DNA of 64,000 nucleotides from a virus. The notes below the pieces were generated by a model. It did no database searches, had not been told where the DNA came from, and saw only the letters and a program-made list of their open reading frames with translations. Where the stretch lies: positions 2,763-66,762 of the IMG/VR virus record IMGVR_UViG_3300028559_000035; one strand, given 5' to 3'. The position numbers were made by a program, and so were the translations under genes. This document shows positions 1,965 to 38,075 of this stretch, piece by piece; the first letter of the stretch is position 1, and every line of letters starts with the position of its first letter.

Positions 1965-2642
1965 TTAAGTCCACCAACCTTTTACTTTTATAGCCTCAAA
2001 ATCTATTTGAGGTAATTTATCTTTAGTAATCTTTCTTACTTCTCTAATTGTTTTTGAATTATCATCATAAAAAACAGCTTTATTGAATTTACCATTTTGT
2101 ATAAGTTCAACAATGACATCTCCTTTCCAAGATGATGATTTTTTATTATATATTAATTGGCCTGGATAACAATATAAACCATGATTTGGCATATCAAATC
2201 CTAATTTTTCTAAATATTCTTCTACTTTATATCTTATCTTATCATACCTTGCAGTTACGATAGCTTTATTTTTAACTCTTTTATATATCTCTGATATATC
2301 TGTTATTTTATCTGGAAAACTTAAACTTGAATAATAATATCTATCTGGTGCTGTTAGATAAACTCTTTCTTTTTTTCTAACCCAATCAGTTTTTTTGGTA
2401 TTTATTTTATATTCTGGGTCATTCACATAATATCTACCATTATCAAATTTTAGATCACTAATCTTAGCATTTATTTGATTTAGAAGATACTCTAATAAAT
2501 CACTGATTTTTAAATTCTCATTCAAAAAATCAAATATTTGTTCTTCAATTTTTGGACTATCAACAAGTGTGTCGTCAAAATCAAAGATCCATAATGTGTT
2601 ATCATCATCAATGGATTCAAATAGTTTATATTTAATTATCAT
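1965..2642 (-). CDS. HAD-superfamily phosphatase (Swiss-army-knife RNA-repair-like)
   Basis: Motif I DFDDTL, VTAR motif II, FYDD motif IV; N-terminus MIIKYKLFES. Confidence 0.7.
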   Translation of the reverse strand: MIIKYKLFESIDDDNTLWIFDFDDTLVDSPKIEEQIFDFLNENLKISDLLEYLLNQINAKISDLKFDNGRYYVNDPEYKINTKKTDWVRKKERVYLTAPDRYYYSSLSFPDKITDISEIYKRVKNKAIVTARYDKIRYKVEEYLEKLGFDMPNHGLYCYPGQLIYNKKSSSWKGDVIVELIQNGKFNKAVFYDDNSKTIREVRKITKDKLPQIDFEAIKVKGWWT

Positions 2643-2897
2643 TTAAGCATATATATTAAATTTTTAATTATATTTGTATATGATGAATCAAATAGAATTT
2701 GGCAATTTTTTTAATAAACTTAATGAGTTGCTTGAGAAAGAAAAAAGAGGTGAACAGATTGATCTAGATGAGCAGATTGATTTTATTCTAATGACTGGTC
2801 AAACTAATCATGATGAGGAATTGCAAGATTTTTCTAGAAGGTTAAAAAACCGAAAAAATAATTTGAAAAAATTATTAGGAGATTGAAAACTTTTTAG

Positions 2898-2905
2898 TAT
2901 ATTTG
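2898..2905 (+). promoter_or_regulatory. Bacteroidota-type -7 promoter box driving amber tRNA operon
   Basis: TATATTTG matches TAnnTTTG; lies 15 nt upstream of the tRNA; identical boxes at 2669, 24121, 29241, 30495, 31730, 32091, 60209, 60856 and 35029-35036 (-). Confidence 0.7.
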
Positions 2906-2920
2906 TAATGTAATAAATAA

Positions 2921-3002
2921 GCGAGTAGAATCTTAAATGACACGTGGTGTGACAACTAGATTCTAAACCTAGAGATAAGGCGTTCGACCCGTCCTACTCG
3001 CA
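2921..3002 (+). tRNA. Atypical amber suppressor tRNA, anticodon CUA
   Basis: Acceptor GCGAGTAG/CTACTCGC (8 bp); anticodon arm CTAGA-TTCTAAA-CCTAG; T arm GGCG-TTCGACC-CGTC; enlarged D region; no encoded CCA. Confidence 0.8.
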
Positions 3003-3088
3003 CAAATAAAATAAAAATAAGTAAAATGAGTAATATGTAGGTTAAAATCCAGAAAAAAAATGATTTTCAATATTTTATATATAACTAT

Positions 3089-3994
3089 ATGAAAAATCAA
3101 TTTATTAAAAAATCAATAATTATACATAATGGTAAATATGATTACTCTATGGTTGAGTATATAAATACCAACACTAAAGTTAGTATAATATGTTCTAAAC
3201 ATGGTGTATTTAACCAAACACCAAAAAATCATATAAACAATCACGGATGTCCTAAATGTGCTTTAGAATATAAAAGTTATAAACTTAGAGAAGATATTTT
3301 TTATTTTATTTCTAAATCAAATAAAATTCATTTAAATAAATATTCGTATGAAAAATCATTTTATAAAAATAACAAAACCAAATTAATTGTAACATGTCCA
3401 TTTCATGGTGAATTTATAATAACTCCTATACATCATTATAAAGGACACGGATGTAAAAAATGTACTAATCAACATAGAAGAAGTACCGAGGAATTTATTT
3501 TAGAATGTAATAAAATACATAATAATAAATATAATTATAGTGAATCTAAATTCACATCATTGAAAAATAGTGTTGATATTATTTGTAATAGTCATGGGAA
3601 TTTTAAACAACAGGCAGGACATCATTTAAGAGGACATGGTTGTCCAGGTTGTTCAACATCAAATGGGGAAAAATTCATAAAAAAATGGTTAGATAATTGT
3701 GGAATTAAATATATTACTCAAAGTAAATTTAATGATTGTTTAAGTTTAAAAGGTAGAAAACTAAAATTTGACTTTTTTATACCAAGTTTAAATTTATGTA
3801 TAGAGTTTGATGGGAAGCAACACTTTGAACCATTGGAATTTTTTGGTGGAGAAAAATCTTTTAATATATTGAAAGAGAACGATGATATTAAAAATATATA
3901 CTGTGATAAAAACAATATCTCATTAATTAGAATAAAATATAATGAAGATATAGAAAAAATATTAAAACAAAAAATAAATTATATTATGAACTAG
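3089..3994 (+). CDS. Free-standing homing endonuclease (CxxHG/GCxxC Zn-finger repeats + C-terminal PD-(D/E)XK/Vsr-like domain)
   Basis: Repeated YDYS..I.C..HG.F......H..G.GCxxC units; C-terminal FDFFIP...IEFDGKQHF; ends in TAG in frame with the downstream gene. Confidence 0.75.
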   Translation: MKNQFIKKSIIIHNGKYDYSMVEYINTNTKVSIICSKHGVFNQTPKNHINNHGCPKCALEYKSYKLREDIFYFISKSNKIHLNKYSYEKSFYKNNKTKLIVTCPFHGEFIITPIHHYKGHGCKKCTNQHRRSTEEFILECNKIHNNKYNYSESKFTSLKNSVDIICNSHGNFKQQAGHHLRGHGCPGCSTSNGEKFIKKWLDNCGIKYITQSKFNDCLSLKGRKLKFDFFIPSLNLCIEFDGKQHFEPLEFFGGEKSFNILKENDDIKNIYCDKNNISLIRIKYNEDIEKILKQKINYIMN

Positions 3995-29726: not shown

Positions 29727-30254
29727 TTAGTTAGATCTTTCTAAATTTGTAGCCCTATTTAAATAATAGTCTTCATTAAATCCTAATCTTTTTAATAAAG
29801 GTAAAAAATTATTATTTAAAATATTGATAGTTTCATCTATATCTATATTATCAAACTCTTCTAAGTAACAATAATCGGTTTCACCAGTTGTTATATCTTT
29901 AATAAAAACATCTCCACGATATTCAGATTTTTGATATAAAATACACATATCTATTGTAGATTTACTTCTAAAATAGATAGAGACAGAGACATGGAAAGAT
30001 TCATTTCTAATTATAAATACAAAAACATCATTATCATTGGTTACAAAATGATTATCATCTTCAACAATACACCTGTTAATAACTGGAACAAAATATCTTA
30101 ATTTTTTAAAAAAAATTGATACAGGCATTTGAATACTTAGAACACTTGCAAAATTATTGTCTATATCTTTATTCAAATCATCTTTAGATATATCTGGATT
30201 TAGATTCTTTTGAATTTCATCATCAAATAGTTCATTTAGTTTCTTAATATTCAT
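29727..30254 (-). CDS. CTS-like tagged hypothetical protein (MNIKKLNE)
   Basis: ORF track; late-type box upstream. Confidence 0.5.
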   Translation of the reverse strand: MNIKKLNELFDDEIQKNLNPDISKDDLNKDIDNNFASVLSIQMPVSIFFKKLRYFVPVINRCIVEDDNHFVTNDNDVFVFIIRNESFHVSVSIYFRSKSTIDMCILYQKSEYRGDVFIKDITTGETDYCYLEEFDNIDIDETINILNNNFLPLLKRLGFNEDYYLNRATNLERSN

Positions 30255-30507
30255 AATATTTATAGTTTTTCTTATATATTAATAATTAAATTTTAGTAAC
30301 CAGCAAGATAGATAAATTTTTTTAAGAAATTTATCATTTTATTTTCACTATTTCCAGAAGAAACTTGTACCCATGAACCACACACCTTAGTCTAAGTACC
30401 GGATAATCTGTATAATTTGTATCAATTATGTATAATGGATAATTTTCATCCCAATCTTCTTTAAAATAAAATTGTTTATATAGAATTTTATAACTATATT
30501 TGTAAAT

Positions 30508-31146
30508 ATGAAGTATAACTCCTTTAGATATCTGTATCCTCCCAGACCTAAAAACGCGATTCCAGATTCAGATTTGAATTTCTGGGATAATGGTTCATTG
30601 CTTGGTCAACCAAAAATAAATGGTTCAAATGCAACTATCTATACTAATGGAATAGAACTATTAGTTATGAATCGACATGGACAATATCTAACCAATGTTA
30701 ATATTTCGAAAGAAGAAATTCTTCGTTTATTTCGTGGTGAAGTTGGTAAATGGTTGGTATTAAATGGAGAATATTTAAATAAATCTAAGCAAGACGAAAA
30801 TCGTCTCGTATTCAATCATAAACTTGTTATTTTTGATATACTAGTTTATAATTCAGAATACCTTATAGGAGAAACATTTCAAGATAGAATAAATCTTCTT
30901 GATGAATTATATGAGCAAAAATATTCTGAAAAGCCTTATTTATACTCAATTTCAGATAATATTTATCATGTTAAGTCATTTGAAACCGGATTCAAATCTA
31001 TATTTGATGAATTAACAAAAATAGATATGATCGAAGGTTTAGTATTAAAGAGAAAGAATGCTAAACTTGAACCAGGAAATAGTGAAAATAATAATATCAA
31101 ATCACAAATTAAAGCTCGTAAAAGATCCAAATCTTATAAATATTAG
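30508..31146 (+). CDS. Minimal ATP-dependent ligase/capping-type nucleotidyltransferase domain
   Basis: QPKING (motif I variant), LNGE, FDIL, EGLVLK, QIKAR; no OB domain. Confidence 0.7.
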   Translation: MKYNSFRYLYPPRPKNAIPDSDLNFWDNGSLLGQPKINGSNATIYTNGIELLVMNRHGQYLTNVNISKEEILRLFRGEVGKWLVLNGEYLNKSKQDENRLVFNHKLVIFDILVYNSEYLIGETFQDRINLLDELYEQKYSEKPYLYSISDNIYHVKSFETGFKSIFDELTKIDMIEGLVLKRKNAKLEPGNSENNNIKSQIKARKRSKSYKY

Positions 31147-31158
31147 AAAGTAAATTAT

Positions 31159-31716
31159 ATGATAAAAAAATTTGAATCTTATTCCCAAGAATTACATGAT
31201 TATGTAAAGGGAAAAACAAAATTGACACCACAGACTAATATTCTTATGAATGATAGGAGTAAAAATTGGTATGAGGAACTTGGAAAATATTTTGTTGATG
31301 TATTTGGTAAGAATTTACCAGGTGGATTATCATTTTATAATGATAAGATAGATAAACTTGGAATATTGGATAAATTAAGTGGTAAATCTGAAAGGTTATA
31401 CGCTAATATAGGAATATTCGTATTCACATCAGTTTTTGATGAAGATGTTCTTAGATCTTTATTTGGTGAACCACTTTATCATGATGAGTTTGGTGAGGGA
31501 TTTGAAGGAGAATATGATGAAGAAACAGATGATTATTTAGAACCAGAAAATAAATTTCAATATGCTTCTCATTTTGTTGAAATTGAAGGTGTTAAATTTC
31601 ATATTGGATATGACCACCGAGGAACTTCAATGGAAGTTGAAGTAGGAACATCACCTCAAAAATTATTTGAGTGTATTAAAAGTTTAATTGATAAATATAA
31701 AACAATTTTGAAATAA
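31159..31716 (+). CDS. CTS-like tagged hypothetical protein (MIKKFES)
   Basis: ORF track. Confidence 0.5.
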   Translation: MIKKFESYSQELHDYVKGKTKLTPQTNILMNDRSKNWYEELGKYFVDVFGKNLPGGLSFYNDKIDKLGILDKLSGKSERLYANIGIFVFTSVFDEDVLRSLFGEPLYHDEFGEGFEGEYDEETDDYLEPENKFQYASHFVEIEGVKFHIGYDHRGTSMEVEVGTSPQKLFECIKSLIDKYKTILK

Positions 31717-31750
31717 ACTTATTTATTATTATATTTGTAATAAGATATAA

Positions 31751-31856
31751 TTACTGATTTACGAATGGTGCGGTCATAACAGTTATCTTTTAGTTAACGG
31801 AGTTAACACTATAAGATATAGGCTGATGGCGGTATACTCACAGTAAAATATTAATT
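31751..31856 (+). ncRNA. Candidate rod-shaped structured ncRNA (~106 nt)
   Basis: Closing stem TTACTG/CAGTAA; CGGTC/GGCTG; TATCTT/AAGATA; TTAAC-GGA-GTTAA; own TATATTTG box at 31730; no ORF. Confidence 0.5.
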
Positions 31857-31883
31857 TTTTATAAACTAGTAAAAAATACTACA

Positions 31884-32060
31884 ATGTATAGAACTATTGA
31901 AGAATTAGAATCTTTAAACTTTAAAGAACTTCCACAAGAAGAAAGACTTACTATTATGTTATCTATTATAGATAACCTTGATATCGATATTTCTCAATTC
32001 AAAAAATACTTTCTTAAAGAAGATATAGATATTCTTAAAAAAAGAAATAAATATTCTTAA
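31884..32060 (+). CDS. 58-aa hypothetical protein (not in ORF track)
   Basis: Manual translation MYRTIEELESLNF...NKYS. Confidence 0.45.
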   Translation: MYRTIEELESLNFKELPQEERLTIMLSIIDNLDIDISQFKKYFLKEDIDILKKRNKYS

Positions 32061-32143
32061 AATAAAATTTGGAAGTTTAAAAACTTTCTGTATATTTGTA
32101 ATATAAAATCAAAAGAGACATAAACTTTTTAATATATAAAGAA

Positions 32144-32245
32144 ATGAAAACATTAATAAACATATTAGTTAACCCTCAACCACAAGTTGTTGTCGATCAG
32201 GATCAAGATCCCGATACGAATGAGGCTAACTGCATGTTTATGTGA
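32144..32245 (+). CDS. Putative attenuator leader peptide (33 aa, PQPQVVVDQDQDPD)
   Basis: MKTLINILVNPQPQVVVDQDQDPDTNEANCMFM; lies between promoter boxes (32091, 32130) and a terminator. Confidence 0.7.
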   Translation: MKTLINILVNPQPQVVVDQDQDPDTNEANCMFM

Positions 32246-32268
32246 TGTGAAAACATTATAAAGAACTG

Positions 32269-32305
32269 AACCCAGTTAGTCTAAAAAAGATTAACTGGGT
32301 TTTTT
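32269..32305 (+). terminator. Intrinsic terminator (attenuator) upstream of tRNA-Asp/Pro/Pro
   Basis: AACCCAGTTAGTC-loop-GATTAACTGGGTT followed by a T run. Confidence 0.8.
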
Positions 32306-32314
32306 ATTTTATAT

Positions 32315-32386
32315 AGTTCGTGAGTATGTTGGTATAAATATCCGGCTGTCAACCGGAAGAAGCGGGTTCAATTCCCGTACGAACTG
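32315..32386 (+). tRNA. tRNA-Asp(GTC)
   Basis: TCCGG-CTGTCAA-CCGGA; T arm GCGGG-TTCAATT-CCCGT; G discriminator. Confidence 0.8.
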
Positions 32387-32444
32387 CGAGTGAGACTGTT
32401 ACTAATACATAGAAGGCTTGGGCCTTGCATAGAATTAGATTTTT

Positions 32445-32521
32445 CGAGTAGTGACTAAGGTTATAAGCACGGGAGCCCTGGAAGCTTCAGTTAACAGGTT
32501 CGATTCCTGTCTACTCGACCA
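32445..32521 (+). tRNA. tRNA-Pro(TGG), C33 variant, encoded CCA
   Basis: C1-G72, A73, CCA; GGAGC-CCTGGAA-GCTTC. Confidence 0.7.
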
Positions 32522-32525
32522 AATA

Positions 32526-32601
32526 CGAGATATTGTGGAGTCAGGTACCCCGCCTGGTTTGGGACCAGGAGAACTCGCAGGTTCGAATCCTACTATCTCG
32601 A
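32526..32601 (+). tRNA. tRNA-Pro(TGG)
   Basis: CCTGG-TTTGGGA-CCAGG; GTTCGAATCC; C1-G72, A73. Confidence 0.85.
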
Positions 32602-32652
32602 CTATAAATTTAGGGAAACCGACATTTTTAATATATAAAAATAAAATATCGT

Positions 32653-33174
32653 ATGAATTTAGAAGAAGAAATAAAAAATTGTTATAGTGTAACAGATTTT
32701 TGTAAACTATTAAACCTATCATCGGGTGGTGGTGGATTTAATAAAGCAAAAATGATAATTCAAGATAATAATCTGGATATATCTCATTTTAATAAAGGAT
32801 ACTTTAAAAGACAAAAGAATCCTAGAATTGAAAAGATTTGTCCAGTTTGTGGTGAAAATTTTGAAACAGTAACTTGGAGTAATAAAAAAGAAAAAACTAC
32901 ATGCTCAAAATCATGTGCTAATTCTTATTTTAGAAGTGGATTAAATAATCCTAACTGGAAAGATAATTCTTACAGAACTACTTGTTTCTATTACCACAAA
33001 AAAGAATGTGTAATATGTGGGGAGGAAAAAATTGTGGAAGTACATCATATGGATGAAAATCATATGAATAATAAACCAGAAAATTTAGTACCCTTATGTC
33101 CTACACATCATCAGTATTGGCATTCAAGATATAAAATAGAAATAGAAGAAAAGATAGATAATGAAATCATATAA
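32653..33174 (+). CDS. HNH homing endonuclease inside tRNA cluster
   Basis: CVICG...EVHHMDEN..NN..ENL..LCPTHH; CPVCG...CSKSC. Confidence 0.8.
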   Translation: MNLEEEIKNCYSVTDFCKLLNLSSGGGGFNKAKMIIQDNNLDISHFNKGYFKRQKNPRIEKICPVCGENFETVTWSNKKEKTTCSKSCANSYFRSGLNNPNWKDNSYRTTCFYYHKKECVICGEEKIVEVHHMDENHMNNKPENLVPLCPTHHQYWHSRYKIEIEEKIDNEII

Positions 33175-33973
33175 ACAATTTATTACAGAATCTAAAACAG
33201 ATATTGATTCTATTTGTAAAAAATATAATATAAAGAATTATATCATAAATGAAGATGGTTCAATTAATGTGGATGGAGATGTTGATTTTGATAGATATAA
33301 CTTAATTGAACTGCCATTAAAATTTGAAAAAGTTACTGGAGTATTTGATTGTGATAACAATAAATTAACTTCTTTGAAAGGTGCTCCTAAAGAAGTTGGT
33401 GGCACCTTCTATTGTAATAGAAATAAATTAACTTCACTAGAAGGTTGTCCAAAAAAGGTTGGTGGTGATTTTTATTGTAGTAATAATAAATTAACTTCTT
33501 TAGAAGGAGGTCCAGAAACTATTATAGGGGATCTTAATTGTGATAATAACATTATTAACTTTAGAGGAATACCTGAATTCTTTGAAGGTAATTTTTATTG
33601 TGCATTTAATGAATTAACTTCTTTAGAAGGTTGCCCAAAAAAAGTAAAGAATTTTGATTGTAATGATAATTTATTAAATTCACTAGTTGGATGTCCAGAA
33701 GAGGTTGGTGGTTATATTGATTGTAGAAATAATAGAATAATTGATTTTAGAGGTATATCTGAATTTTTTGAAGGTAAATTTTATTGTGGAGGTAATCCAA
33801 TATATGAGATTTATTCATTATTTGATGAGGATGTTAGATGTATTTGTCTAATTAATGAATTTGATGTTATTGACGGAGAGAAAGTTATCTTAGATCGATT
33901 AGAGGAAGTATTTCATCAATTAGGAATGGAAATTCCACAAAATATAAGATTTAGAAATTATGAAATCGTATAA
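33161..33973 (+). CDS. Leucine-rich-repeat protein (21-aa NNKLTSLEGCPKKVGGDFYC repeats), CTS-tagged
   Basis: Visible repeats; N-terminus MKSYKQFITES. Confidence 0.8.
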   Translation: MKSYKQFITESKTDIDSICKKYNIKNYIINEDGSINVDGDVDFDRYNLIELPLKFEKVTGVFDCDNNKLTSLKGAPKEVGGTFYCNRNKLTSLEGCPKKVGGDFYCSNNKLTSLEGGPETIIGDLNCDNNIINFRGIPEFFEGNFYCAFNELTSLEGCPKKVKNFDCNDNLLNSLVGCPEEVGGYIDCRNNRIIDFRGISEFFEGKFYCGGNPIYEIYSLFDEDVRCICLINEFDVIDGEKVILDRLEEVFHQLGMEIPQNIRFRNYEIV

Positions 33974-34598
33974 ACAATTTATTAAGGAATCTAAAACAGA
34001 TATTGATTTAATTTGCCAAGATTTTGATATAGAGAATTATACTATTAATCCAGATGAATCTATTGATGTTGATGATAATGTTTATTTAAATAATAGAAAT
34101 CTATCTAGTATTCCATTAAAATTTGGCAGGGTAAGTGGATATTTTAGTTGTTATAATAACAACTTAACTTCATTAGAAGGTTGTCCAGAAAAAGTAGGTG
34201 GTGATTTTTATTGTGATAGTAATGATTTAATTTCATTAAAGGGATGTCCAAAAAAAGTAAATGATTTTAATTGTAAAAATAATCAATTAACTTCATTAGA
34301 AGGTTGTCCAGAAGAGATTGGTGGTTATTTTGATTGCAGAAATAATAAAATATATGATTTTAGAGGGATATCTGAATTTTTCGATGGTACTTTTTATTGT
34401 GGAGATAATCCAATACAAGAAATTTATTCATTATTTGTCACCCAAGGACGTGAGGATGTTAGATGTATTCGACTAATTAATGAGTTTGATGTTATTGATG
34501 GAAAGAAAGTTATCTTAGATCGATTAGAAGACGTATTCCATCAATTAGGAATGGATGTACCAGAAAATATAGAATTTAATTATTATGAAATTATATAG
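33960..34598 (+). CDS. Leucine-rich-repeat protein paralog, CTS-tagged
   Basis: Same repeats and caps; MKSYKQFIKES. Confidence 0.8.
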   Translation: MKSYKQFIKESKTDIDLICQDFDIENYTINPDESIDVDDNVYLNNRNLSSIPLKFGRVSGYFSCYNNNLTSLEGCPEKVGGDFYCDSNDLISLKGCPKKVNDFNCKNNQLTSLEGCPEEIGGYFDCRNNKIYDFRGISEFFDGTFYCGDNPIQEIYSLFVTQGREDVRCIRLINEFDVIDGKKVILDRLEDVFHQLGMDVPENIEFNYYEII

Positions 34599-34670
34599 AT
34601 ATCTTGCCTGGATTCGAACCAGGATCTTTACTTTCAGAGAGTAAAATATTAGCCGTTATACGACAAGACA
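34599..34670 (-). tRNA. tRNA-Gln(CTG)
   Basis: TTACT-CTCTGAA-AGTAA; U1-A72; GGTTCGAATCC. Confidence 0.8.
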
Positions 34671-34678
34671 TTGTATTT

Positions 34679-34707
34679 TGTTATGGAAGTAGGATTCGAA
34701 CCTACAC
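34679..34707 (-). pseudogene. tRNA 3' fragment (T arm + 3' acceptor strand)
   Basis: GTAGG-TTCGAAT-CCTAC-TTCCATA with no matching 5' half. Confidence 0.5.
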
Positions 34708-34726
34708 TGTGCATCTTCAATGTTAG

Positions 34727-34799
34727 TTGGAAAAATAGGAATCGAACCTATATCTTCTGATCCAAGGTCAGAAATAATTTGCCATTATACTATTTTCCA
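34727..34799 (-). tRNA. tRNA-Gln(TTG), C33 variant
   Basis: TCTGA-CCTTGGA-TCAGA; acceptor TGGAAAA/TTTTCCA. Confidence 0.75.
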
Positions 34800-34806
34800 A
34801 AAGTTG

Positions 34807-34877
34807 TTTTCTCGTTTGGATTCAAACCAAAGATAAGGGGGCCAAAGACCCTTGTGTTATCGCTACACTACGAGAAA
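34807..34877 (-). tRNA. tRNA-Gln(TTG), slightly degenerate
   Basis: AGGGT-CTTTGGC-CCCCT; T loop TTTGAAT; acceptor TTTCTCG/CGAGAAA. Confidence 0.7.
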
Positions 34878-34879
34878 AT

Positions 34880-34913
34880 AAAAAACCCGAACCAATTAGA
34901 TTGATTCGGGTTT
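34880..34913 (-). terminator. Intrinsic terminator (attenuator) upstream of tRNA-Gln cluster
   Basis: AAACCCGAATCAAT-CTA-ATTGGTTCGGGTTT followed by a T run on - strand. Confidence 0.8.
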
Positions 34914-34942
34914 ATATGTTTTTAGACAAAACTATACCATTA

Positions 34943-34993
34943 TCAATCTGTTCGATTAATTTGTTGTTGTTGGTATTGAGTTGTTGTTGTCAT
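34943..34993 (-). CDS. Putative attenuator leader peptide MTTTTQYQQQQINRTD
   Basis: Five CAA codons; promoter boxes upstream (TATATTTG at 35029-35036 on - strand, AATATATA); terminator downstream. Confidence 0.75.
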   Translation of the reverse strand: MTTTTQYQQQQINRTD

Positions 34994-35044
34994 ATTCTTT
35001 ATATATATTTTATTTATTCCTTGTTTTACAAATATAGTAATTTT

Positions 35045-35386
35045 TTATTTTTTACCAAAACCTTTTTTAGGTTTATATTTTTGATTTTGTTCACTTCTCA
35101 TAGAAAGTTTAGATTTAATTTCATCAATAACATCTTTTTTGGTAGATTTTTCATCAATTTTAATATTAACTCCGTTAAATTCACCAGTAACAATCGATCT
35201 TTTACCAGCAACAAATTGTGCATAAGCAGCCACTTTATTATGTTGAACATCTTTAAAATGTTTTAACAATCTATCAACATATTTTTCAATACTTTCACCA
35301 CCCATTGCTTCCAAATTATACTCTAATTTTTCAGATTTAGTTTTTATTGAAACAGGCTTTATAAATCTACTAATAAATCTACTCAT
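35045..35386 (-). CDS. Basic hypothetical protein
   Basis: 113-aa ORF; late-type box upstream. Confidence 0.5.
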   Translation of the reverse strand: MSRFISRFIKPVSIKTKSEKLEYNLEAMGGESIEKYVDRLLKHFKDVQHNKVAAYAQFVAGKRSIVTGEFNGVNIKIDEKSTKKDVIDEIKSKLSMRSEQNQKYKPKKGFGKK

Positions 35387-35432
35387 TATTATATTATTTT
35401 TTATTATATATTAAAAATATATATTTATTTTG

Positions 35433-35522
35433 TCGAGATGACAGGATTCGAACCTGCATGTTCACTTTCGTTACTCTCCTGGTCCCAAACCAGGCCGGAA
35501 GCCAATTACCGATTACATCTCG
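35433..35522 (-). tRNA. tRNA-Pro(TGG) with long variable arm
   Basis: CCTGG-TTTGGGA-CCAGG; ~20-nt variable region AGAGTAACGAAAGTGAACAT; C1-G72, A73. Confidence 0.75.
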
Positions 35523-35592
35523 TCTTGTAGATTGATCATTACCAGTCCGACACTTTCGGCGGGTTAAGATTCCGAGACAATCTACTTTATTG

Positions 35593-35665
35593 CGGTCCAT
35601 ACCGGATTCGAACCGGCACCACACACCTTGACAGGGTGGCATTGTAACCATTCAACCAATGGACC
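35593..35665 (-). tRNA. tRNA-Asp(GTC)
   Basis: Loop CTGTCAA; GCCGG-TTCGAAT-CCGGT; G73. Confidence 0.85.
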
Positions 35666-35670
35666 TTTTG

Positions 35671-35744
35671 CGGATATGAAGGGATTCGAACCCTCGATCT
35701 CCTCCGTGACAGGGAGGCATGTTAGGCCACTACACCACACATCC
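35671..35744 (-). tRNA. tRNA-Asp(GTC)
   Basis: CCTCC-CTGTCAC-GGAGG; canonical cloverleaf; G73. Confidence 0.9.
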
Positions 35745-35750
35745 TTTTAG

Positions 35751-35839
35751 CGGATACACCTGGACTCGAACCAAGATCTACCCCAACACACTAGGGCCAC
35801 TCTACCAACGACGTTTTCGTCTAGTTAAGCTATATATCC
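35751..35839 (-). tRNA. Atypical tRNA-like RNA (identity undetermined)
   Basis: Acceptor GGATATA/TGTATCC; T arm CTTGG-TTCGAGT-CCAGG; D loop with inserted GACG-AAAA-CGTC hairpin; irregular anticodon loop AGTGTGTT. Confidence 0.55.
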
Positions 35840-36579
35840 TTTTTAAATCTTTTTATATAATAATTCTCAAATTTTATATTTTCTGCTGCCAACATACCTA
35901 ATTGATGAAATACTTCTTCAAGTCTATCCAAGATAACTTTTTTTCCATCTACAATAACATCAAACTCGTTAATCAATCGAATACATCTAACATCACTATA
36001 AAATAAATTAAATATTTCCCATATTGGATTACCCAGACAATAAAATTTACCATCAAAGAAATCTGATATTCCCTTAAAATTAGTAATTTTATTTGATAGA
36101 CAATAAAAATCTGTACCGATAATCTCTGGACATCCTACTAATGAAGTTAATTTATTACCACTACAATAAAAATCTCCACCCACCTTTTCTGGACCACCAT
36201 TTAGTGAAGTTAATTTATTACCACTACAATAAAAATCTCCACCCACCTTTTCTGGACCACCATTTAGTGAAGTTAATTTATTATTATGACATCCAAAATC
36301 ACCATTTACTAATTTTGGACATCCTTTAAGTGAAGTTAATTTATTATTAGAACAAAAAAAATTTCCACTAATTTTACTAAATTTTACTGGAATTTCTTTC
36401 AAAGAAGTATTTGATGCCTCCTTGGCGGTGTACGAAAATACAGGTTTTAAATAAACACTCCCATCTACGTCAATAGATCCATTATCATTTATGGTATAGT
36501 TATTAATATTAAACTTTGCACAAATTGGGTCTATTTTATATTTATGAAAAACACTTTTAAACTTTTTTAAATATTTCAT
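35830..36579 (-). CDS. Leucine-rich-repeat protein paralog
   Basis: Same 21-aa repeats and C-terminal DVRCIRLINEFDVI..KKVILDRLEEVFHQLGM cap. Confidence 0.8.
   Translation of the reverse strand: MKYLKKFKSVFHKYKIDPICAKFNINNYTINDNGSIDVDGSVYLKPVFSYTAKEASNTSLKEIPVKFSKISGNFFCSNNKLTSLKGCPKLVNGDFGCHNNKLTSLNGGPEKVGGDFYCSGNKLTSLNGGPEKVGGDFYCSGNKLTSLVGCPEIIGTDFYCLSNKITNFKGISDFFDGKFYCLGNPIWEIFNLFYSDVRCIRLINEFDVIVDGKKVILDRLEEVFHQLGMLAAENIKFENYYIKRFKKDI
36142..36283. repeat. Exact 63-bp tandem duplication (one LRR unit)
   Basis: Unit starting TGAAGTTAATTTATTACCACTAC at 36142 and 36205, partial third copy at 36268. Confidence 0.9.
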
Positions 36580-36601
36580 ATTTTATATATTATAAAAATT
36601 T

Positions 36602-37653
36602 TTGTATATTTATGAAATGAAGTATAATGATAGAGGAACAAAATTATTAACCTACAAACATAAAAATAAACAAGAAACCACAACAGATTTCTATGAAGTT
36701 TATCGAAACAAGATTGTTAAAAAATTTAGTAGAGAAGTTCTTATATCTGGTGTTGATCCAGAATGGTGGTCTCTTGTTAGCAAAGAAAAAAGATATTCAT
36801 TATGTCAAAATTATGAGTTTCATAAAACCTTTACATCTGGTGAAGAAGTAAATCTTAAAGATTATATAGAAAAAAATAAAAAAGGTCTTGTTGATATTTC
36901 AAAATTAAGAGAGTTGAAATTACGTAAATTATTAAAATAATGGAACAGATACTAAAAAATAAAATTCCTGGATTATTTAGGTTAATCTCTATTGATAAAA
37001 TACCTAATAGTGAACCTCTGGAGTGGAAATCTGGACAACATTTTATTAAATATGTAGAACTATCTTATAGAACAGATAAATCTCCTGTATTTTTTATCAA
37101 AAATACAATATTAGATTTAACAACAGAATATAGGGAACTTAATATTTCTAAAATATTAAGTTCCGATGATAAAATAAATTTTGAAGTAAATGAGTCATTC
37201 TATACAGAAGAACAAATTAAAAAAATAGAACTTCTAAGAAAAAATAGAAAATTAGAAAATTCTAATAGATGTATTTTACAAAATTGTAAAATTGAATGGT
37301 CTAATAAATTTAAACTAGGAGATAGAGTATATTATAAGGGTGATATAGGAATTATTACTTATAAACATAATATGAAATCTCCAGATTCTCCACAAGAATG
37401 GACTGTTAGATCTAATGGTGTTGAATATAGATATGTTAGTGGATCTTCATTGAAAATACACGAAAAAGTAGATTTATCATATATTGAAGTTGATAAAGAA
37501 TTAGATAAACTACCTACTTCAAAGCTTTTAAAGATGTATAAAAAATCATTAAAAGTAGGTAAAGGTGTGGGTAATAGAAGGATAAAAAGAGTTCTTTACG
37601 AAAGAGAAGATTTAACAAATAAAAATCCAAGTAAAATTGTAAATGTCAGATAA
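36602..37653 (+). CDS. Two hypothetical proteins with RExK-type motif (36602..36940, 36940..37653)
   Basis: LRELKLRKLLK; internal YRELNISKIL. Confidence 0.5.
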
Positions 37654-37667
37654 TAATATATAGTTAA

Positions 37668-38075
37668 ATGAAATATTTAAAACTATATAAAATATTTGAA
37701 TCTGATAATATAGAAGATCAATTAGATACTATTAAAGATATGTTTACTGATATAACTGATGGGTATAATATTGATTCTAATATTTATTATCATCAGGAGA
37801 GTACAACATATCTGAGCTCAACTGGTCCGGTTAGCAAGAAAACTGATTATATAGTTATTGATATTGATATTGATAAAAAAATTGGAAGTAAAGATATTAT
37901 TAGAAATTTATTAAAAGATATATTTTCATTCACTGATAGAGTCGTTTCACATTTCGGAGTTAAAGTTAACTACTGTTTGGGTGGTAATGAAATAATAAAT
38001 AAGGGAGATCATATTTTAAAAAATTGGCACAATTGGGAAGGTGAATACTTTCAAATATATTTTACACAAGAGTAA
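37668..38075 (+). CDS. CTS-tagged hypothetical protein (MKYLKLYKIFES)
   Basis: TAATATATA box just upstream. Confidence 0.55.
   Translation: MKYLKLYKIFESDNIEDQLDTIKDMFTDITDGYNIDSNIYYHQESTTYLSSTGPVSKKTDYIVIDIDIDKKIGSKDIIRNLLKDIFSFTDRVVSHFGVKVNYCLGGNEIINKGDHILKNWHNWEGEYFQIYFTQE

Follow-up and report, generated by a model that had tools for sequence, protein, structure and literature searches.

Candidate leader-peptide attenuators in front of tRNA genes in a lake-water phage and its huge relatives

Two leader–terminator–tRNA units on opposite strands

The DNA considered here (the window) is a 64,000-nucleotide (nt) stretch of the IMG/VR virus record IMGVR_UViG_3300028559_000035, and it covers most of a 66.7-kb contig from lake-water metagenome DNA. 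CheckV estimates the completeness of this contig at 20%, so it is a fragment of a phage genome of several hundred kilobases. The sequencing runs listed as containing it are lake-water DNA metagenomes, with no RNA run among them. The window carries two units, one on each strand, in which promoter-like boxes, a short open reading frame (ORF) and an intrinsic terminator stand in front of transfer RNA (tRNA) genes. An earlier note, made from the sequence alone, had described the first of these units as a leader-peptide attenuator; we analysed both units and their counterparts in related phages, with evidence that is computational throughout. The plus-strand unit, named here after the Pro, Gln and Asp codons of its leader, has the following features:

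32091–32098, plus strand: promoter-like box TAnnTTTG (sequence)
32131–32138, plus strand: second promoter-like box, AATATATA, 13 nt before the leader ATG (sequence)
32144–32245, plus strand: leader ORF with ATG start, 33 codons and stop (ORF reading)
32174–32215, plus strand: test-codon block of three Pro, four Gln and four Asp codons, interspersed with three Val codons (sequence)
32165–32177, plus strand: segment 1, which pairs as anti-antiterminator with segment 2 when the full-length leader is untranslated (minimum-free-energy and centroid folds)
32222–32240, plus strand: segment 2, partner of segment 1 or of the terminator 5′ arm (antiterminator; duplex energies, folds and ribosome-mask folds)
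32268–32310, plus strand: intrinsic terminator, with 5′ arm 32268–32282 (segment 3), loop, 3′ arm 32288–32302 (segment 4) and T run (folding)
32315–32387, plus strand: tRNA-Asp(GTC) (ARAGORN; Rfam, 47.5 bits)
32445–32518, plus strand: atypical tRNA-Pro-like gene (TGG, C at position 33; Rfam tRNA model only, 34.5 bits)
32526–32602, plus strand: tRNA-Pro(TGG) (ARAGORN; Rfam, 46.2 bits)

The promoter boxes and the 33-codon leader with its three Pro, four Gln and four Asp codons lie where the earlier note had placed them. Pro codons occupy leader positions 11, 13 and 23, Gln codons positions 12, 14, 19 and 21, and Asp codons positions 18, 20, 22 and 24, and segment 2 follows 3–21 nt ahead of the leader stop codon. 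The strong terminator, previously put at 32269–32305, maps to 32268–32302 plus the T run; its 15-bp stem contains five G–C pairs and has a predicted stability of −20.6 kcal/mol. The antiterminator pairing that had been predicted for 32224–32232 was recovered, as these nine nt are complementary to 32273–32281 in the terminator 5′ arm, with one G–U pair. The tRNA-Asp gene starts 12 nt after the terminator stem and about 4 nt after the T run, a gap that leaves no space for a separate tRNA promoter downstream of the terminator.

The claimed order tRNA-Asp, Pro, Pro holds for the Asp gene and the last Pro gene, which both ARAGORN and Rfam report, and needs qualification for the middle gene. This is an atypical Pro-like tRNA that ARAGORN missed and that only Rfam detects (34.5 bits, threshold 29), with C in place of the usual U33. 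Its homologue in the phage LR745206.1 (L001, 3259–3333), which is called as Pro(TGG), shares C33; the oddity is therefore conserved and not a sign of decay.

The second unit, on the minus strand, has a leader rich in Gln codons and precedes three tRNA-Gln genes:

35029–35036, minus strand: TAnnTTTG box (sequence)
35002–35009, minus strand: second box (sequence)
34943–34993, minus strand: leader ORF of 16 codons, five of them Gln (all CAA; ORF reading)
34935–34950, minus strand: segment 2, lying across the leader stop codon (duplex energies and folds)
34954–34960, minus strand: segment 1, the alternative to the terminator 5′ arm as partner of segment 2 (folds)
34883–34913, minus strand: intrinsic terminator, −17.1 kcal/mol (folding)
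34598–34877, minus strand: tRNA-Gln(TTG), tRNA-Gln(TTG) and tRNA-Gln(CTG) (ARAGORN, Rfam)

Leader codons and downstream tRNAs in related phages

A phage database search with blastn revealed no close relative of the window; huge uncultured phages cover 5–13% of it, and generic tRNA matches were also returned. The distant matches fall exactly on the leaders, and come from the huge uncultured phages LR745206.1 (634,780 bp) and LR756502.1 (642,428 bp). Motif scans of IMG/VR yielded three more contigs, giving five records in the first set. Eight of 14 Gln-leader motif matches and three of four matches to the Pro/Gln/Asp leader motif were chance occurrences inside coding DNA and were discarded. Eight further examples of the Pro/Gln/Asp leader type were found in other contigs, and the Gln leader has five homologues.

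All tRNA genes of the five records were listed and each tRNA cluster was extracted. A script that looked for a hairpin and T run in the 70 nt ahead of each tRNA returned 20 junctions, and in every one a short ORF ends just before the terminator; the complete first set comprises 23 units. A replication set was drawn from 117 further loci retrieved by a promoter-plus-start pattern, and here a leader is present at 22 of 23 terminator-to-tRNA junctions. Over both sets, an ATG ORF of 15–60 codons ends 17–33 nt (median 25) before the terminator in 45 of 46 junctions, compared with 6.7% of random positions in the same loci. The only junction that lacks a leader ORF (L111) has a weak 7-bp stem within the tRNA region, and was excluded from the replication counts.

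The TAnnTTTG box, which we take to be the Bacteroidota −7 type promoter motif, is found no more than 110 nt upstream of 16 of the 23 first-set leaders, compared with 10% of random 110-nt windows. The AATATATA box precedes 12 of the 23, compared with 3% of random windows; this box may belong to the translation start context or be a promoter specific to the phage. A sigma-70 type promoter scan was uninformative in this AT-rich window, where 44 promoter-like hexamers compare with 37.3 ± 5.9 expected from shuffles. This lack of excess, together with the short ORFs that do occur at 6.7% of random positions, would suit an explanation by chance, in which the hairpin does no more than end transcription arriving from upstream, the small ORF goes untranslated and the tRNAs are made by other means. 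Such a coincidence of unrelated elements is extremely unlikely given the fixed distance of the ORF in 45 of 46 junctions, the missing space for a promoter between terminator and tRNA, and two permutation tests, described below, that both reach their minimum possible values.

The leaders of LR745206.1, LR756502.1 and the IMG/VR contigs fall into at least seven types, and the composition of each mirrors the tRNA genes downstream:

Pro/Gln/Asp leaders: tRNAs for Pro and Asp, and in several contigs for Gln, Pro and Asp
Gln leaders: two to four tRNA-Gln genes, in LR756502.1 also a glutaminyl-tRNA synthetase (GlnRS) gene
Asn/Leu/Met/Thr/Val(/Ile) leaders: a long block of tRNAs for precisely those amino acids
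His/Lys/Phe/Trp leaders: tRNAs for His, Phe, Trp and Lys
Ser/Arg leaders: tRNAs for Arg and Ser
Ile/Gly leaders: tRNA-Ile(TAT) and tRNA-Gly
Glu/Tyr leaders: tRNAs for Glu and Tyr

Further flavours appear in the replication set, namely Leu/Arg leaders and Asn/Ile/Val/Thr/Cys leaders, the latter with tRNA-Cys among the tRNAs behind. When the seven leader types of LR745206.1 were permuted against its seven tRNA sets, none of the other 5039 permutations scored as high as the true pairing, whether amino acids or codon/anticodon matches were counted (78 cognate residues and 67 codon/anticodon matches, both maxima). In LR756502.1 the true pairing was likewise the single best of 720. For every tRNA set, the maximum of cognate codons falls in its own leader (7 of 7 columns in LR745206.1 and 6 of 6 in LR756502.1), and 18 of the 22 replication units are cognate-enriched at P<0.05. 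A survey of related phages, which had been suggested as a check, thus indicates that leader codons track the tRNAs behind each terminator.

Alignment of the nine Pro/Gln/Asp leaders revealed each of the four CCN codons at the Pro positions, and a switching between CAA and CAG at the Gln positions. Because these codons vary synonymously at aligned positions, the leaders appear to be under selection for translation. The codon runs could in principle also pair with anticodons, and the controlled genes belong to the tRNA and synthetase sphere, as T-box targets do; both points would fit a protein-free, T-box-like RNA switch that binds tRNAs directly and uses the runs as untranslated specifier triplets. 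The ATG start, open frame, stop codon at a fixed distance and synonymous variation instead point to translation. No T-box or other riboswitch family was detected by Rfam in 30000–38000 at E≤1, where one sub-threshold small RNA was the non-tRNA match, and T-box leaders are far longer than those described here. We therefore regard a T-box-like switch as very unlikely.

The first few N-terminal residues are alike across leader types, which could reflect functional micro-proteins, with the hairpin serving to process or stabilise the tRNA precursor. Between types, however, the peptides are conserved only in the composition that matches their tRNAs, and no protein family match was obtained (none in Pfam for the Pro/Gln/Asp leader peptide). 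The hairpins moreover carry the T runs typical of intrinsic terminators, and a micro-protein role has hardly any probability in our judgement.

In the Gln unit of LR756502.1, four tRNA-Gln genes are followed by glnS (L002, 1173–2774, minus strand; 618 bits, cut-off 425.8), with no terminator seen between them. The presence of this GlnRS gene behind the unit ties the tRNA attenuator design to the classical attenuation of synthetase genes.

Some tRNA blocks lack a leader. In the relatives these include Gly(GCC)/Ala(TGC) genes and several isolated Met genes, and in the window the minus-strand Tyr-Asp-Asp-Pro tRNA block. Initiator-like tRNA-Met genes of the relatives (L021, about 1340–1371; L030; L023) have the AATATATA promoter box directly upstream, and neither leader nor terminator. 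Their leaderless arrangement fits the attenuator idea, as stalling during elongation cannot sense the initiator tRNA.

Two departures from the common layout were also observed. In LR745206.1 and LR756502.1, the tRNA-Lys genes are immediately preceded by nine-codon mini-ORFs with Lys at every second position (L020, about 2137–2196; L025, about 1791–1846), each followed directly by a hairpin without a T run; these may represent an eighth, non-canonical unit. In LR756502.1 (L027, about 960–1250), a 67-codon ORF is inserted between a terminator of the Asn/Leu/Met/Thr/Val type and tRNA-Asn.

Alternative pairings and the proposed switch

Antiterminator potential was assessed from the most stable duplex that the leader can form with the 5′ arm and loop of the terminator, relative to 300 dinucleotide shuffles. 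For the Pro/Gln/Asp unit this duplex has −15.6 kcal/mol, compared with −8.1 ± 2.0 kcal/mol for the shuffles. The two window units have z scores of −3.8 and −4.4, and none of the 300 shuffles reaches either. The duplex is more stable than the shuffle mean in 45 of 45 units (23 in the first set and 22 in the replication set). When terminator arms were swapped between leaders, the combination of each leader with its own arm was the best of 5040 permutations in LR745206.1 and of 720 in LR756502.1. Across all units, the own arm has a median rank of 4 out of 45, compared with 22.5 for random pairing and with 12 as the lowest median in 2000 random pairings. Homologous leaders with differing terminators have segment 2 sequences that differ correspondingly. 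The trp/his attenuator geometry invoked in the earlier note is hence present, specific in both the codon and the swap tests (1/5040 and 1/720) and recurrent in relatives.

The fold of the full Pro/Gln/Asp leader (−48.5 kcal/mol, z −6.0, with none of 200 shuffles as stable) contains the 1:2 hairpin and the terminator, and a further small hairpin covers the stop codon. When the same leader is cut before the 3′ arm, the 2:3 antiterminator appears in both the minimum-free-energy and the centroid structure, so that folding yields the two alternative structures that had been anticipated. For the Gln leader, the fold (−30.3 kcal/mol, z −5.8) combines the terminator with a 1:2 hairpin that directly follows the Gln run. 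The 1:2 pairing is thus present in both window units when they are folded at full length; not every relative shows it (20 of the 23 first-set units were folded).

The effect of a translating ribosome was modelled for the two window units by masking a 30-nt footprint on the nascent transcript, starting from the ATG. In the Pro/Gln/Asp unit, 14 of 15 nt of the 5′ arm are paired upstream when the A site is on codons 1–22, and this falls to 4 of 15 when it is anywhere between codon 25 and the stop, in line with the earlier proposal that a ribosome at the leader end masks the antiterminator. In the Gln unit, 9 of 14 nt are paired with the A site on codons 1–11, and 0–3 from codon 13 to the stop; without a ribosome, segment 2 is sequestered and 0 of 14 are paired. 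The masked folds follow the classical logic, in which stalling on the test codons leads to read-through and smooth translation leads to termination.

We conclude that the window units are very probably ribosome-mediated leader-peptide transcription attenuators with tRNA as their output, providing demand-driven tRNA synthesis. From the anatomy, specificity and conservation observed, we infer leader translation, stalling and read-through in the following order. Transcription would start at the boxes in 32091–32138, and a ribosome would translate the 33-codon leader while RNA polymerase nears the terminator. Prompt decoding of Pro, Gln and Asp codons would bring the ribosome to the stop codon, where it masks segment 2; the terminator could then form, and transcription would end about 12 nt before tRNA-Asp. 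If the charged tRNAs were scarce, the ribosome would stall on the Pro, Gln or Asp codons and cover segment 1, leaving segment 2 to pair with the 5′ arm, so that no terminator forms and the polymerase continues into the tRNA-Asp gene and both Pro genes. On the opposite strand, the Gln unit would apply the same logic to its three tRNA-Gln genes. The predicted outcome is negative feedback, in which the output of each tRNA block scales with the shortfall in decoding of its own codons.

Several observations weigh against this interpretation. Taken alone, the Pro/Gln/Asp leader of the window is only modestly enriched (Pro or Asp at 7 of 32 residues, background 0.098, P = 0.033), and its four Gln codons have no tRNA-Gln in their own block; the latter can be explained because the same leader type precedes Gln-Pro-Asp blocks in relatives. 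The Pro/Gln/Asp-type leader of LR756502.1 has one Pro codon left (P = 0.24), and 4 of the 22 replication units have no significant cognate enrichment. Three of the 23 first-set units were added by eye from the regions upstream of cluster-initial tRNAs, homologous units are non-independent, and LR745206.1 and LR756502.1 are related and so do not amount to two independent trials. The four weakest units have antiterminator z scores of −0.6 to −0.9. The truncated Pro/Gln/Asp leader already adopts the antiterminator at equilibrium without a ribosome (14 of 15 nt). With −12 to −21 kcal/mol, the terminator exceeds the antiterminator (−9 to −22 kcal/mol) in stability in most units, and the switch must therefore be kinetic. 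In leaders of the Asn/Leu/Met/Thr/Val type, about 24 nt separate the end of segment 2 from the stop codon, a distance at which a ribosome halted at the stop would miss it.

The units could also be real attenuators that report the general state of translation or the amino-acid supply (charging), and not tRNA abundance; any slowing of ribosomes, by host shut-off, starvation or ribosome-targeting toxins, would then open all tRNA operons. Attenuators such as those of trp and his indeed cannot distinguish an absent tRNA from an uncharged one, and one Gln unit has the GlnRS gene behind it. A tRNA array of Anabaena is induced by general translational stress (PMC10272220). The leaders are nonetheless spelled in the codons of their own tRNA blocks, a precision that a general sensor does not need, and we consider this explanation improbable. 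We favour instead, as the probable arrangement, a codon-resolved feedback network in huge Bacteroidota-type phages, in which at least seven specialised attenuators would gauge decoding speed for each codon family and top up the matching tRNAs, and in one case the synthetase.

It is possible, though we think it unlikely, that the set of attenuators is induced in defence against a host that depletes tRNAs or deploys anticodon nucleases. A 212-aa ORF some 1 kb ahead of the tRNA locus (30508–31146, plus strand) matches ATP-dependent DNA ligase (E 1.6e-9) and RNA ligase (E 3e-7) families and may have a tRNA-repair function; it is the sole contextual hint, and a weak one, of an anticodon-nuclease trigger.

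Other features surround the units. Directly behind the plus-strand tRNA block lies an HNH endonuclease-like ORF (32653–33174, plus strand; Pfam HNH_2, E 1.7e-4), and in the closest relative (L035, about 2360–3290) another HNH-like ORF lies between the two attenuator units. With its convergent blocks and duplicated Asp and Pro genes, the window tRNA locus looks rearranged around HNH-like genes. The tRNA-Pro(TGG) gene at 35432–35522 (minus strand, 91 nt) has a long variable-region insertion that is conserved in a relative (L013, 904–994). A 113-codon ORF (35045–35386, minus strand) with its own AATATATA-type box and no Pfam family separates the Tyr-Asp-Asp-Pro tRNA block from the Gln leader. At 31730–31856 (plus strand), an ORF-free stretch of about 120 nt follows a TAnnTTTG box and precedes the 58-codon gene at 31884; this region may encode a small RNA.

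Relation to known attenuators and tRNA arrays

Attenuation is known for amino-acid and synthetase genes, and the expression of tRNA genes is usually ascribed to promoter strength and growth-rate signals. No description of leader-peptide attenuation of tRNA genes was found by full-text searches of openly accessible articles, supplementary files excluded. In the main text of PMC8421152, "attenuat-", "leader peptide" and "terminator" are absent, as are "attenuat-", "leader" and "terminator" in the huge-phage paper PMC7162821. If correct, the proposed mechanism would account for an economical use of large tRNA repertoires by phages and would provide a direct, testable link between translation stress at the level of codons and tRNA supply. 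The units would also be compact natural sensors for single codon families, usable as reporters of tRNA availability. The stimulus that opens the switches would distinguish compensation for codon usage from action against host defences that target tRNAs.

Leader-peptide attenuators control the trp, his, leu, thr, ilv and pheA operons of enterobacteria. The units described here resemble the trp/his type in having a short, putatively translated leader rich in the sensed codons, an intrinsic terminator, and alternative 2:3 and 3:4 pairings (with 1:2 in the full-length folds of the window units) in which a ribosome at the leader end would mask segment 2, and their multi-amino-acid leaders parallel the multivalent thr and ilv leaders. 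They differ in that segment 2 lies within the ORF or across its stop codon, and in their phage setting, with Bacteroidota-type promoter boxes and many specialised units per genome (at least seven types). The usual targets of attenuators, amino-acid biosynthesis enzymes and synthetases, are replaced by tRNA genes, with GlnRS only in LR756502.1. As the product is the tRNA itself, the loop would close on decoding capacity and not on amino-acid synthesis; what departs from the usual scope is the target, whereas the mechanism would be shared.

The pheST attenuator of E. coli, with its pheM leader, controls phenylalanyl-tRNA synthetase and is likewise a case of leader-peptide attenuation of the translation apparatus, which the GlnRS gene behind one Gln unit recalls. 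It controls the synthetase only, and we know of no tRNA gene behind a leader of the pheST type. T-box elements of Firmicutes and relatives also sense the state of a specific tRNA, choose between terminator and antiterminator and control genes of the aminoacylation sphere. They bind uncharged tRNA without translation, whereas the units described here contain an ORF and have no T-box match.

The nearest published inducible accessory tRNA array that we found is the trn operon of Anabaena sp. PCC 7120. It comprises 26 tRNA genes that are silent until translational stress, with a homing endonuclease nearby (PMC8421152, PMC10272220). It is thus similar to the phage loci as an accessory tRNA array for impaired translation with a homing endonuclease in its neighbourhood. 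Its control is different, as it is exerted by a protein repressor, TrcR (PMC10272220, PMC8421152).

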